From Candidatus Melainabacteria bacterium (GTDB lineage Bacteria; Cyanobacteriota; Vampirovibrionia; 2-02-FULL-35-15), in the NCBI GenBank assembly GCA_016201905.1, contig JACQBQ010000018.1:56667-120666 (forward strand): 64,000 bases of DNA, given 5' to 3'. The position numbers and the translations under genes were made by a program. Below are positions 126 through 59,178 of the stretch, in pieces (the stretch's first letter is position 1; each line of letters begins with the position of its first letter). Under the pieces are notes generated by a model that searched no databases, had not been told where the DNA came from, and saw only the letters and a program-made list of their open reading frames with translations.

Positions 126-230
126 GTAGTTATTTTCTCATGAAAGTTGCTGTAATGGTTTAAGAGCACGTGTGGAATGCTTCTCAAATAGTCTCACATG
201 CTTATAATTAAGCCCAAAAACTAGGCTATC

Positions 231-357
231 TAATAAAGTGAGGCTTGTTCAATTAATTTGACAAGCCGAATGTTCTTTGGAAAGGTGGCTCTGAGGAGCA
301 ACGTCACCGCCCGCCAGAGGCGAGGCTCGTCAAGGCGGCAAGAACCACCTGAGTAAT
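231..357 (+). ncRNA. Candidate structured RNA motif B, copy 1 (5' of nrdR)
   Basis: Aligns with 36862-36958. Stems GGCTTGT/ACAAGCC and AGGTGGCTCT/AGAACCACCT; invariant 18-mer GAGGAGCAACGTCACCGC; TATAAT at 203-208 upstream. Confidence 0.65.
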
Positions 358-390
358 AAGGTATAATGTTTGCTTGTGAGGAATGAATAG

Positions 391-13538: not shown

Positions 13539-14507
13539 CTACGCATTAACAAAAATGCCTATATTCCTAAATTTTTCTTGTCTGTCTTTTTTTATTTCAT
13601 TGCTTGAAAGTCTGCTCAGTTCTTCTAAATGTTTCTTTACTGCAATTAGCAATTGTTCGCTAGTTTCTTTAGGATTATAGTGAGCTCCGCCTTCTACCTC
13701 AGGTATAATTTCGTCGATAATCCTTAATTTATATAAATCATAGGCTGTTATTTTCAGAGCATTTGCTGCTTCTTGCACTTTATCTTTTGTACGCCACAAA
13801 ATTGCTGCACAACCTTCAGGTGAGATGACAGAATAAACTGAATTCTCAAGCATTAAAATTCTATTTGCAACTCCAATTGCAAGAGCTCCACCCGATCCGC
13901 CTTCGCCAGTTATAACTGCTATTACAGGAACTGTAAGCCCGGCAAGTTCTCTTAAGTTCATTGCAATTGCATGGCTTTGATTGTGAGCTTCAGCTTCAAG
14001 CCCAGGATAAGCGCCTGGTGTGTCTATAAAAGTTAGAATAGGGAAATTAAACTTTTCAGCATGGTAAAAAAGCCTCAGAGCCTTTCTATAGCCTTCAGGT
14101 GATGGCATACCAAAGTTTCGTTTTTGATTTTCTTTTATATTTCTACCCTTTTGAGTACCAATTGCCATGATTGTCTGACCTTCAATTTCAATTAATCCAC
14201 CAATGATTGCTCCATCATCTTTACCTTCTCTGTCACCATGCAGTTCATGCCAGGTCGGACTTATTAGCTGTATGTAATCAAGTGGGTATGGTCTTTGTGG
14301 GTGTCTAGCAATTTTAACTCTGTCCAGAGGAGAGAGATCTTTATAAATCTGGCTTTTAACTTTGGCATATTGATTTTTTAAATCATTAACAACTTTCTTA
14401 TTGCCGTTTTGCAAAGTCTTTTGTTCTAACTCATTGATTTGCTTTGATAAAGCAATTAACGGTTTTTCAAAATCTAAAGCTATAAAATCTTTTTTTGTTT
14501 CTTTCAT
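13539..14507 (-). CDS. accA: Acetyl-CoA carboxylase carboxyltransferase alpha
   Basis: LDFEKP, ARHPQRP, PEGYRKALR, GEGGSGGAL. Confidence 0.97.
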   Translation of the reverse strand: MKETKKDFIALDFEKPLIALSKQINELEQKTLQNGNKKVVNDLKNQYAKVKSQIYKDLSPLDRVKIARHPQRPYPLDYIQLISPTWHELHGDREGKDDGAIIGGLIEIEGQTIMAIGTQKGRNIKENQKRNFGMPSPEGYRKALRLFYHAEKFNFPILTFIDTPGAYPGLEAEAHNQSHAIAMNLRELAGLTVPVIAVITGEGGSGGALAIGVANRILMLENSVYSVISPEGCAAILWRTKDKVQEAANALKITAYDLYKLRIIDEIIPEVEGGAHYNPKETSEQLLIAVKKHLEELSRLSSNEIKKDRQEKFRNIGIFVNA

Positions 14508-17340: not shown

Positions 17341-17412
17341 TGCGCCTGGCGCGAATCGAACGCGCGGCCAATCGGTTAAAAGCCGAGTGCTCTACCCCTG
17401 AGCTACAAGCGC
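17341..17412 (-). tRNA. tRNA-Lys(UUU), CCA not encoded
   Basis: Reverse complement GCGCTTGTAGCTCAGGGGTAGAGCACTCGGC-TTT-TAACCGATTGGCCGCGCGTTCGATTCGCGCCAGGCGCA folds as a cloverleaf. Confidence 0.95.
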
Positions 17413-34205: not shown

Positions 34206-34304
34206 TATATCAAGTCTTCAAGTTGTATTACATTGAACAATTTAATTTTTTTAGGTATTATTAAATACTCTGAAACAAGTAAAGAAGTTTAAGATTGTTT
34301 GAGA

Positions 34305-34400
34305 TAAGTAGACTGAGCGAAGGATGAGTCCACTGCGGTGAGCAATATCCTGAGCGTCGGGAAGGAAAAGGAAAAATCATGTTTGATCCATGATTTTTCC
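34305..34400 (+). ncRNA. Candidate structured RNA motif A, copy 1 (5' of rpmE)
   Basis: AGCGAAG-stem-GGTGA loop-stem-TGAGCGT..GGAAGGAAAAGGAAAA-hairpin; aligns with 36771-36862. Confidence 0.6.
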
Positions 34401-34411
34401 GGTATAAAAAA

Positions 34412-34615
34412 ATGAAAGAGAAAATACACCCACAATATCACAGGCTAGTTGCTACATGTATCTGTGGCAATGAAATCGAAATTGGTTCTACAAGAGCAGA
34501 AATAAGAGTAGAAATTTGTAGCGCATGTCACCCTTTCTATACAGGTACGCAAAAAATCCTTGATTCAGAAGGTCGTGTTGATAGATTCCAAAAGCGTTAC
34601 GGTACAAAGAAATAA
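34412..34615 (+). CDS. rpmE: 50S ribosomal protein L31 (Zn-binding type)
   Basis: MK..IHP.Y, CICG, CSACHPFYTG. Confidence 0.96.
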   Translation: MKEKIHPQYHRLVATCICGNEIEIGSTRAEIRVEICSACHPFYTGTQKILDSEGRVDRFQKRYGTKK

Positions 34616-36504: not shown

Positions 36505-36770
36505 AAAAAAGTAGAGTACTTAAGGAACCTCTTTCTCCTTATAGCCGTACAGTTTAGTGGTTTAGACTAAGAATTGGTAAAGAAGTGTAATTGTAAAAAT
36601 ATTTTAGGTCTAACCCTTGATTTAAAGCAGAGTTCTAATGTTTTCTAACTTTAGATATATTTTTTAATTTATTGTGAATAATTAAGATGAGATTAAACAT
36701 AGTTATGATTTAACCAAACGCTATCTTTTATTGGTTAGTTTATAGGATAAATGGACATAGATAAATTATA

Positions 36771-36958
36771 AAGCAAATAAGCGAAGAATATTCTGGTGAG
36801 GAATATTCTGAGCGTTAGGAAGGAAAAGGAAAAGGAAAAGTCTTGTGAGAACTAAACTTTTTAATGAAGCGAGTCTTGATCCAATTTATTTAGGCAAGCC
36901 GAGTGCTTTGTGGAAAGCTGGTTCGAGGAGCAACGTCACCGCAGAACCAGCGGAGTAA
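36771..36958 (+). ncRNA. Tandem RNA motifs A (36771-36862) + B (36862-36958) forming the flhB leader
   Basis: Both halves have separate homologs in this window; the last stem ends immediately before the GGAG SD of flhB. Confidence 0.65.
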
Positions 36959-36963
36959 AAAAC

Positions 36964-38043
36964 ATGGCTGATCAAGAAGCCGGTGATAAGCAGTTTGATG
37001 CTACACCGCATAAATTAAGAGAAGCTCAAAAAAAAGGACAGGTTTTTAAAAGCAAAGACCTTACTCAGCTTGTTACTTTTATTGTTGGTTTTTTTATGAT
37101 TTATTACAATGTGGGTTTTATTTGGGAAAACTTTGCAAGATTATTTAACACTCTTTGGAGAGAGATTCCTCATAAATCGCTTTCAGCAATTGGTGGTGGA
37201 TATATTTTTTATGAAAGTTGGCATTGTATAGTTGTTATTATTGTCCCGTTGTTACTGGCTCTTTTGGCAACAGCGCTTGTGGTGGAGTTTTTCCAAGTCG
37301 GACCAATTTTCACGACTGAAACTATGAAATTTGATCTTGCTAAGCTTAATCCATTTGAAGGTTTTAAAAAGGTTATTTTCAATGTCAGATCATTGTTTGA
37401 ATTAGTTAAGTCTGTTTTTAAAGTAAGTGTTTTAGGATACATTGCATTCTTAAGTTTAAAGAGATATATGCCTGAACTTTTGGGTCTTGTTGAAGTAAAT
37501 AACAGGTTTGCTTCAATCGCAATACTAGGAAAAGTATTTTATGATTTTGCAGTTAAAAGTGTAATCTTTTTGTTGATCATATCAATCCTTGATTATCTCT
37601 TTCAAAGATGGAGATATATGAATGATCAAAAAATGACATTTAAAGAATTAAAGGATGAATTTAAACAAACTGAAGGTGATCCTTTGGTTAAATCTATGAG
37701 ACGTCAGAGACAGCAACAAATTGCCTATGGTCAAATGATGGCGCAAGTTAAAGAAGCAGATTTTGTTGTGAAAAATCCAGATCATATTGCTATGGCATTA
37801 AAATATGATTCACAGATGAATCAAGCACCAAAAGTTTTAGCTAAAGGGTCGGAGTTGATTGCTGAGCAGATAATTGAGATTGCAAAAGAATACGGAATTC
37901 CTATTGTAGAAAATATACCATTGGCCAGGGCATTGTTTCGCCTTGTCAGGGTTAATCAGGAAATCCCAGCTGAGCTTTACAGAGCTGTAGCTGAGGTGCT
38001 TCTATTTGTCTATCAATTGCGTGGGAAGGAGCAGTTTCGTTAA
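36964..38043 (+). CDS. flhB: Type III/flagellar export switch protein FlhB (SctU)
   Basis: K...AT.HKL.EA.KKGQV.KS, K.NP..G, EGDP..K, NPDH cleavage site, P.V.AKG, ELY.AVAEVL. ATG at 36964 follows a GGAG SD. Confidence 0.93.
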   Translation: MADQEAGDKQFDATPHKLREAQKKGQVFKSKDLTQLVTFIVGFFMIYYNVGFIWENFARLFNTLWREIPHKSLSAIGGGYIFYESWHCIVVIIVPLLLALLATALVVEFFQVGPIFTTETMKFDLAKLNPFEGFKKVIFNVRSLFELVKSVFKVSVLGYIAFLSLKRYMPELLGLVEVNNRFASIAILGKVFYDFAVKSVIFLLIISILDYLFQRWRYMNDQKMTFKELKDEFKQTEGDPLVKSMRRQRQQQIAYGQMMAQVKEADFVVKNPDHIAMALKYDSQMNQAPKVLAKGSELIAEQIIEIAKEYGIPIVENIPLARALFRLVRVNQEIPAELYRAVAEVLLFVYQLRGKEQFR

Positions 38044-59106: not shown

Positions 59107-59178
59107 GCGGGTGTAATTCAGTGGTAGAATGCAAGCTTCCCAAGCTTGACGTCGCGGGTTCGAACCCCGTCGCCCGCT
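59107..59178 (+). tRNA. tRNA-Gly(CCC), CCA not encoded
   Basis: GCGGGTGTAATTCAGTGGTAGAATGCAAGCTT-CCC-AAGCTTGACGTCGCGGGTTCGAACCCCGTCGCCCGCT folds as a cloverleaf. Confidence 0.95.

Follow-up and report, generated by a model that had tools for sequence, protein, structure and literature searches.

The flhB leader of a Candidatus Melainabacteria genome is a composite of two family-restricted mobile repeats, one of them a putative gene-start cassette

The BOX elements of Streptococcus pneumoniae, assembled from the modules boxA, boxB and boxC, are short, non-coding, multi-copy intergenic repeats whose modules occur alone or combined, fold into stable hairpins, are frequently located close to gene starts and may form part of mRNA. 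Here we describe two repeats, elements A and B, that stand together ahead of flhB in a 64,000-nucleotide stretch of DNA from a Candidatus Melainabacteria bacterium (the window; GenBank assembly GCA_016201905.1, contig JACQBQ010000018.1, positions 56,667 to 120,666 of the forward strand). Both are multi-copy, intergenic and hairpin-forming and are found alone as well as combined, in the manner of modular dispersed intergenic repeats, and the likeness to BOX is one of kind only. A preliminary description of the window had interpreted this leader as a new cis-regulatory RNA of two modules, linking type III export (flhB), dNTP control (nrdR) and ribosome (rpmE) genes. Genome comparisons instead lead us to think, on balance, that the flhB leader is probably a composite of family-restricted mobile repeats, of which A would be an RNA-level gene-start cassette with neither a ligand nor a regulon of its own.

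The analysed assembly (G000; 2.28 Mb in 59 contigs, 33.8% G+C, 98.9% complete) was set beside 40 relatives, a sample of metagenome-assembled genomes of 79-99% completeness, 11 from the window's own family and 29 from other families. Genes were called by simple open reading frame (ORF) scans, with crude ORFs of at least 90 aa for counts of upstream neighbours. Copies of A in G000 were collected by iterated nhmmer at E <= 1e-4, and a covariance model, whose E-values are rough, was then built from the 31 full copies. The motifs of the preliminary description are all present at flhB, rpmE and nrdR, and a 22-mer of A and an 18-mer of B each occur twice in the window, where shuffles predict none. 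The flhB leader is arranged as follows.

36682..36709, + strand: candidate flhB promoter TTAAGA-16-TATGAT, ~70 nt upstream of A, called by consensus scan only
36781..36813, + strand: hairpin P1 of A, ~14 pairs, stem GAATATTC/GAATATTC, loop GGTGA, tandem G.A/A.G at the base (sequence, fold, covariation)
36814..36833, + strand: purine-rich single-stranded linker of A, GGAAGGAAAAGGAAAAGGAAAA, with one GGAAAA unit extra (sequence, alignment)
36834..36849, + strand: remnant of hairpin P2 of A, comprising the 5′ strand GGAAAAGTCTTG and the start of the loop, without the 3′ strand
36850..36868, + strand: 5′ extension of the inserted B, AACTAAACTTTTTAATGAA, aligning with the 5′ flanks of other B copies and with the composite on contig C31
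36869..36904, + strand: hairpin P1 of B, with the same G.A/A.G base motif as A (fold, covariation)
36917..36951, + strand: hairpin P2′ of B, GCTGGTTC/GAACCAGC, with conserved loop GAGGAGCAACGTCACCGC (repeat, fold, covariation)
36952..36966, + strand: 3′ tail of B with GGAG (36952-36955), 8 nt before the flhB ATG (36964-36966)

The last stem of B does end directly against the GGAG, as first described, and in the predicted fold of B the final 14 nt, which hold this GGAG and the start, are unpaired; the tail GCGGAGTAA is common to the B copies of flhB, contig C31 and relative G009. A had also been said to close with a second hairpin, and of that hairpin only the 5′ strand is present at flhB, with no complement within 380 nt at up to 2 mismatches. 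The explanation comes from a second composite on C31, which has the same A/B junction and a nearly identical B part (80% identity over 210 aligned positions) and in which the two P2 strands of A, GGAAAAATCAC and GTGATTTTTCC (11 perfectly complementary bases), stand 122 nt apart with B between them. Because C31 keeps both P2 strands around B and flhB lacks the 3′ strand, the flhB leader is a decayed nested insertion rather than a two-aptamer device: a lineage-specific composite in which B occupies the P2 loop of A and P2 has since lost its 3′ strand. In five of five relatives neither element is present at flhB (protein 77-86% identical), and the same holds at nrdR (five of five, 80-86% identical), as judged by alignment and both covariance models within ~1.5 kb.

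In keeping with the preliminary description, which named no matching riboswitch, Rfam 15 gives no gathering-score match at the three loci; at E <= 10 there is no match at flhB, and those at nrdR and rpmE are at chance level (best glycine-GGAnGA, 13.3 bits versus a cut-off of 110). Two tRNA genes, at 17341-17412 (- strand) and 59107-59178 (+ strand), are the sole gathering-score matches in the window.

The copies of A before rpmE and of B near nrdR do stand alone, as had been noted, but they fall far short of the full number: G000 holds 35 nhmmer matches to A (31 full) or 38 covariance-model matches, with ~4-7 partial copies, and 7 matches to the B model. A is ~90 nt long and has four parts, namely hairpin P1, a purine-only linker (consensus CGGGAAGGAAAAGG), hairpin P2 and an A-rich tail, GGUAUAAAAAA. 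P1 comprises ~14-16 pairs and begins at its base with G-C, C-G, a tandem G.A/A.G and then A-U, and P2 comprises 9-12 pairs (GGAAAAAUCUYG...CRAGAUUUUUCC); both hairpins are supported by RNAalifold and by pair counts over the 31 copies. Across 63 copies of A from 7 genomes, in an alignment that was fitted to the covariance model and so favours the structure, 97.3% of cells are paired and both partners vary in 18 of 24 pairs, a level of covariation reached by none of 500 shuffles, and slid controls pair at 29-66%. The 28 aligned copies of B are 96.5% paired with both-sided changes in 16 of 24 pairs, again matched by 0 of 500 shuffles, so that the structured nature first proposed for both elements is upheld. 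A loose regular-expression scan for P1-type hairpins was uninformative (127 matches versus 99-127 in shuffles).

Covarying structure upstream of start codons, unmatched in Rfam, is what a new metabolite or second-messenger riboswitch would present, with two aptamer modules controlling flhB, nrdR and rpmE. The architecture argues otherwise, since A and B each fold as two separate hairpins with no multi-helix junction or pocket. By inspection only, no conserved alternative to the P2 pairing was seen in folds or alignments. The tandem G.A of A, the only internal loop, gives way to two Watson-Crick pairs in 3 of 31 copies, the P1 loop (GGTGA or TCACC) is reverse-complemented in 4 of 31, and the P2 loop reads UUCRAAG in 12 copies and the near reverse complement UUUGANC in another 12. 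With loops in two orientations and a replaceable G.A motif, neither the loops nor the motif would be recognised in a strand-specific manner. At the DNA level the P2 loop forms are TTCAAAG and TTTGAAC, and in both A hairpins the two forms are flip-flop inversions between the stem arms.

The placement of A is equally at odds with a dedicated regulon. All 31 full copies in G000 share the orientation of the gene that follows: in 26 the gap between the element and the start of an ORF (at least 45 aa) is 6-27 nt, in 2 the gap to tRNA-Ser or tRNA-Tyr is 8-10 nt, 1 is 84 nt from a start, and at the other 2 (flhB and C31) B intervenes. No copy in G000 has a 3′ intergenic location. Eleven of the 31 are intercistronic, with 3-36 nt between the stop of the preceding same-strand ORF and the element (3 nt in the case of rplL), and 12 follow a divergent ORF; copies are found within rplJ-rplL and between tRNA-Thr and tRNA-Tyr. 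Five more copies in relatives lie directly ahead of tRNA genes, and most copies in G010 and G003 are 2-34 nt before a start codon or a few nt before a tRNA gene, in gene sets that overlap that of G000 only partly. The rpmE locus provides an intact example.

34233..34261, + strand: promoter-like TTGAAC-17-TATTAT upstream of rpmE, conserved in G005 and G010 too
34317..34411, + strand: intact A before rpmE, with P1 34317-34355, linker, P2 34370-34400 and A-rich tail 34401-34411, followed by the ATG at 34412

This copy has a fold z of -4.6, its gene product matches Ribosomal_L31, and the promoter-like site, kept upstream of A in three genera, indicates that A lies within the 5′ untranslated region. 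Matches to a -10 box upstream of A are scattered, with no peak at any fixed distance.

Pfam names 25 of the 29 products encoded downstream of A, and they are unrelated housekeeping proteins: LytB, a Na/Ca exchanger, UPRTase, a biotin carrier, PRAI, L7/L12, RimM, NAD synthase, Cpn10, OMP decarboxylase, L34, Mrp, L31, a B12 radical-SAM protein, Glu dehydrogenase, MetK, a ferredoxin, SOD, an epimerase, FliQ, an ABC ATPase, thymidylate kinase, MurA, LigA and SSB. The FliQ assignment concerns a 257-aa ORF after A (contig C49, 28992-29762) of which only residues 7-75 match FliQ (Bac_export_3), and which may be a fusion or over-extended. With A ahead of ~30 unrelated genes plus tRNAs and kept across genera at loci with no pathway in common (sodB, metK, murA, rpmE), with both elements missing from flhB and nrdR in every relative compared, and with the nrdR copy of B lying upstream of the -10 box (below), the riboswitch is close to excluded, and the proposed flhB-nrdR-rpmE regulon is not supported.

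Searching the genome and its relatives with the covariance models revealed further copies that are confined to one family and show no conserved flhB arrangement. Among the 40 relatives, A is restricted to the window's own family, where 7 of 11 genomes contain 12, 10, 8, 11, 1, 18 and 4 matches; another family gave two single weak matches that resemble plain terminators. The B model matches 2, 13, 22, 7, 3, 7, 17 and 7 times in eight family genomes, and finds nothing in G002, G010, G011 or the 29 genomes of other families. Copy number of A thus ranges from 0 to 38 between genera, and G002 is without A and without B. Beyond these genomes, where strict filters were applied, an exact pattern scan yielded no match in public genomes, and a looser P2-like pattern yielded 104 stretches, mostly unspecific terminator-like hairpins, with several on contigs titled Candidatus Melainabacteria. 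Titles and abstract openings of the literature on Melainabacteria riboswitches contained nothing relevant, nor did the matches listed for Gastranaerophilales repeats.

Several copies of A are nevertheless kept at the same loci across genera: sodB (G000, G001), metK (G000, G011), murA (G000, G005), rpmE (G000, G005, G010) and a 73-aa ORF (G000, G010). The sodB elements of G000 and G001 are ~93% identical by hand count on the alignment, the surrounding intergenic DNA barely aligns, and the coding sequence seems less conserved than A; the metK elements of G000 and G011 have locus-specific features in common, namely the linker GGAGGAGG and the same loop type. Because A is better conserved than its flanks and carries such locus-specific features, sequence comparison indicates that the cross-genus copies are vertically inherited under constraint. 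A conserved block, AATTTGTAAATCAAGATT, is also found ~50-60 nt upstream of the sodB element in both genera (C31 7700-7930, locus L050) and may be an operator or promoter.

The multi-copy state, the wide differences in copy number between genera and long target duplications establish that A and B are or were mobile. Direct repeats of 26-54 nt, with at most 1 mismatch, flank 6 of 24 copies of B; 60 random controls of matched geometry gave direct repeats of 15 nt at most. The downstream repeat begins 0-2 nt after B in five cases and 24 nt in one, and the B core lies a variable 26-58 nt from the upstream repeat. On contig C32 (97373-97636; locus L087 1374-1636), B separates an intact tRNA-Phe from a 5′-truncated copy of the tRNA downstream, the 54-nt direct repeat being the end of tRNA-Phe. 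For A, flanking duplications occur in 0 of 31 copies in G000 and in 2 of 25 copies in relatives, one of 52 nt (the 3′ part of tRNA-Arg) and one of 26 nt (before smc). In both cases the A-rich tail is inside the duplication, and therefore belongs to A. Several of the duplicated targets around B (L200 and L220 in G009 and G003; window 200-370) contain the -10-like boxes TATACT and TATAAT, and insertions may favour promoter DNA, with the downstream copy keeping the gene expressed.

As imperfect multi-copy hairpins with conserved flanks, in which covariation is expected too, A and B recall REP/REPIN-type DNA elements moved by a RAYT, an IS200/IS605 Y1 transposase that recognises single-stranded DNA hairpins. 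We regard this origin as very improbable, given that a Y1_Tnp match is missing from a nearly complete genome that is the richest in A, that the matches in relatives do not track the elements (PF01797 is matched in 6 of 11, including G002, which has neither element), and that REPs lie mostly 3′ of genes and are without long target duplications. Two other classes of mobile element were considered and set aside. A SINE-like retroposon would suit the variable length of the duplications, the A-rich 3′ tail and the shifting 5′ limit, but is unsupported, as none of the 12 family genomes has an RVT_1 match; the ends of the A and B consensus, by reading, are not inverted copies, and the duplications are 26-54 nt and variable, which does not fit a miniature inverted-repeat transposable element (MITE).

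B, 100-160 nt long, combines a P1 like that of A with a distinct second hairpin that has a conserved 18-nt loop. The preliminary description treated A and B as separate modules; they have in common the P1 base (AAGYGA...stem...GAGYG; G-Y, Y-R, G.A, A.G) and the beginning of the linker, and for this reason are better placed in one superfamily, as two branches distinguished by the 3′ hairpin. The B repeat unit of G003, G005 and G007 extends 58 nt further 5′, to ~158-163 nt, and is not joined to anything larger. The claim that all copies are sense and just upstream of start codons, which applies strictly to A, does not extend to B: of 21 copies in relatives, at least 5 are flanked by convergent ORFs, so B is no strict leader, and the nrdR copy is positioned as follows.

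233..362, + strand: long B variant with an extra hairpin within the P2′ loop, directly upstream of TATAAT at 362-367; nrdR ATG at 391

The nrdR TATAAT box is found 15-25 nt ahead of the ATG in 5 relatives, so this copy of B, being upstream of the -10 box, probably falls outside the nrdR leader. Elsewhere in G000, a c-di-GMP-I-GGC-type aptamer (C34 ~14333-14454, locus L083 134-255; 58.6 bits, cut-off 59) has a B-type hairpin with loop AGGGAGCAATGTCACCGC in the terminal loop of its second hairpin. Further repeat types were seen at C20 ~105094 and C37 ~3012, and also at C37 ~7532: a 75-nt hairpin in two copies with the same AAGCGAG...CGAG base, and a palindrome, GTCATTGCGAG...CTCGCAATGAC.

Much of this could be produced by selfish or neutral repeats that prefer A-rich DNA (gene starts, promoters, tRNA ends) and keep their hairpins for mobility or harmlessness. 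Copy number swings between sister genera, the insertions at flhB and nrdR are lineage-specific, the gene set is incoherent, long duplications flank some copies, B has entered both a c-di-GMP-I-type riboswitch hairpin loop and the P2 of A and sits between convergent ORFs, and the two loop orientations would be a DNA-level flip. Random repeat remnants had been named at the outset as what would undo the regulatory proposal; copy-number swings and insertion scars are there, and A is nonetheless oriented, placed and covarying. It is this regularity (31 of 31 full copies sense, 28 of 31 abutting a gene start, none 3′ intergenic in G000), together with orthologous-locus copies better conserved than neighbouring intergenic DNA and, at sodB, than the coding sequence, that makes neutrality an unlikely account of the two elements in our judgement.

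We therefore favour a passive but selected RNA cassette, with an attenuator and a neutral repeat as its main rivals. In this proposal A would act as RNA, as a portable 5′-leader or intercistronic cassette with its own A-rich initiation region. Its two self-contained hairpins would lock the upstream sequence so that the start codon or tRNA 5′ end stays single-stranded, and may also define or protect RNA ends; selection would preserve the hairpins, since a U-rich or purine-rich arm, once unfolded, would be free to base-pair with the start region. No ligand would be sensed and no specific regulon defined. In line with the proposal, the predicted unpaired fraction around the start is somewhat higher for the 27 A genes (median 0.58) than for 500 other ORFs (median 0.49; p = 8e-4).

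Three more specific activities were considered and rejected. A does not supply a Shine-Dalgarno (SD) sequence, as an SD-like 4-mer precedes 5 of 29 A genes and 372 of 1615 ORFs genome-wide (23%; 11% in shuffled upstream regions), rates that are no different. CsrA binding is not supported, since PF02599 has no match in the A-rich genomes G000, G010, G005 and G003 and some linkers are without GGA. A promoter inside P2 and the tail, called at metK as TTGACC-16-TAAAAT, would place the start site past the ATG.

Another competitor is a generic transcription attenuator, in which P2 would be a weak intrinsic terminator and a trans factor on P1 and the purine tract would set read-through of a large housekeeping set that includes tRNAs, r-proteins and chaperonin. 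P2 has the A5-stem-U5 shape of bidirectional terminators, and the 104 P2-like stretches in public genomes come mostly from unrelated taxa, where they are ordinary terminators. A terminator scan called P2 terminator-like on the minus strand only, with UUUUCCUUCC; on the sense strand U5 pairs with A5, and if the upper P2 stem alone is counted, U5 follows the stem there as well. Location ahead of tRNA genes likewise argues for a transcription-level role. On the other side, the compensatory changes within the A5/U5 section of P2 (for example AAAACA/TGTTTT) denote selection for pairing and not for a U run, some P2 variants are almost without G-C pairs, and A occurs inside essential operons (rplJ-rplL) and between tRNA-Thr and tRNA-Tyr. 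A conserved antiterminator pairing was not found, by inspection only, and the fixed spacing of 6-15 nt to the start would be unexpected. We accordingly give attenuation a small chance of being the correct explanation.

At metK, in two genera, A follows a bona fide SAM-I aptamer at a distance of 65 nt, stands 9 nt ahead of the ATG and is the sole terminator-like hairpin where a SAM-I expression platform is expected, which favours the terminator reading of P2. This is one of several points that weigh against a passive cassette. The accessibility difference is modest, and its comparison set has crude start calls; an effect on translation alone would hardly account for a role in both mRNAs and tRNA precursors; and the two copies of A with clear duplications lie 75-83 nt from the next start rather than abutting it, so that the landing site does not explain the strict abutment of old copies. 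The mobility of the elements is likewise left without an evident enzyme, there being 0 matches to the Y1 transposase domain (PF01797) in G000 and no reverse transcriptase (PF00078, RVT_1) in 12 of 12 family genomes. The SAM-I aptamer itself (C32 52826-53157, locus L263 327-658; 66.4 bits) has a ~86-nt insert in the P3 region relative to its G011 orthologue, and a UGAGC/GCUCA pairing could compete with the aptamer P1.

If A is functional, it would be a rare case of a portable leader common to dozens of unrelated genes and tRNAs, and would show how an uncultured, SD-poor sister lineage of Cyanobacteria organises RNA ends or initiation. A bolder version strikes us as speculative and rather unlikely: A and B would form a novel class of very small non-coding mobile elements that spread with no recognisable transposase or reverse transcriptase and duplicate 26-54 nt of target, and A would have been adopted by the host as a gene-start cassette for RNA processing, stability or SD-independent initiation at 30 or more housekeeping genes and tRNA precursors per genome. 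The target duplications, long, variable and with no known enzyme behind them, point to a form of small-DNA movement not described before. Repeats of this kind also mimic riboswitch-like leaders and will mislead motif hunts, and the covariance models of A and B, now defined, could mask or annotate copies.

Set against other known systems, A and B resemble the Correia elements of Neisseria and the MITEs and small dispersed repeats of cyanobacteria in being tiny, mobile and intergenic, in nesting in each other or in hairpins and in entering transcripts, but their consensus lacks terminal inverted repeats, and their duplications are 26-54 nt and variable rather than 2-9 nt and fixed. Phage T7 RNase III sites and the Bacillus STAB-SD offer a functional likeness, with conserved hairpins just before gene starts in polycistronic RNAs and a purine-rich, SD-like tract far from the start codon; those are not known to be mobile multi-copy families. 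The REP, BIME and REPIN elements of enterobacteria and Pseudomonas (for REPINs see PMC3116915) are species- or family-specific imperfect hairpins in tens of copies that evolve in concert within a genome; the present elements differ in that G000 lacks a Y1 transposase, A is 5′ of genes and the copies are not inverted pairs. With riboswitch and attenuator leaders A and B have in common a sense-oriented, structured 5′-leader RNA, and P2 of A resembles a terminator, yet there is no Rfam match, ligand pocket or tie to a gene family, an alternative pairing was not seen by inspection, and one copy of A lies downstream of a genuine SAM-I riboswitch. From the BOX elements, finally, A is distinguished by its strictly sense orientation, its abutment to start codons and tRNA 5′ ends, its A-rich tail and long, variable target duplications.
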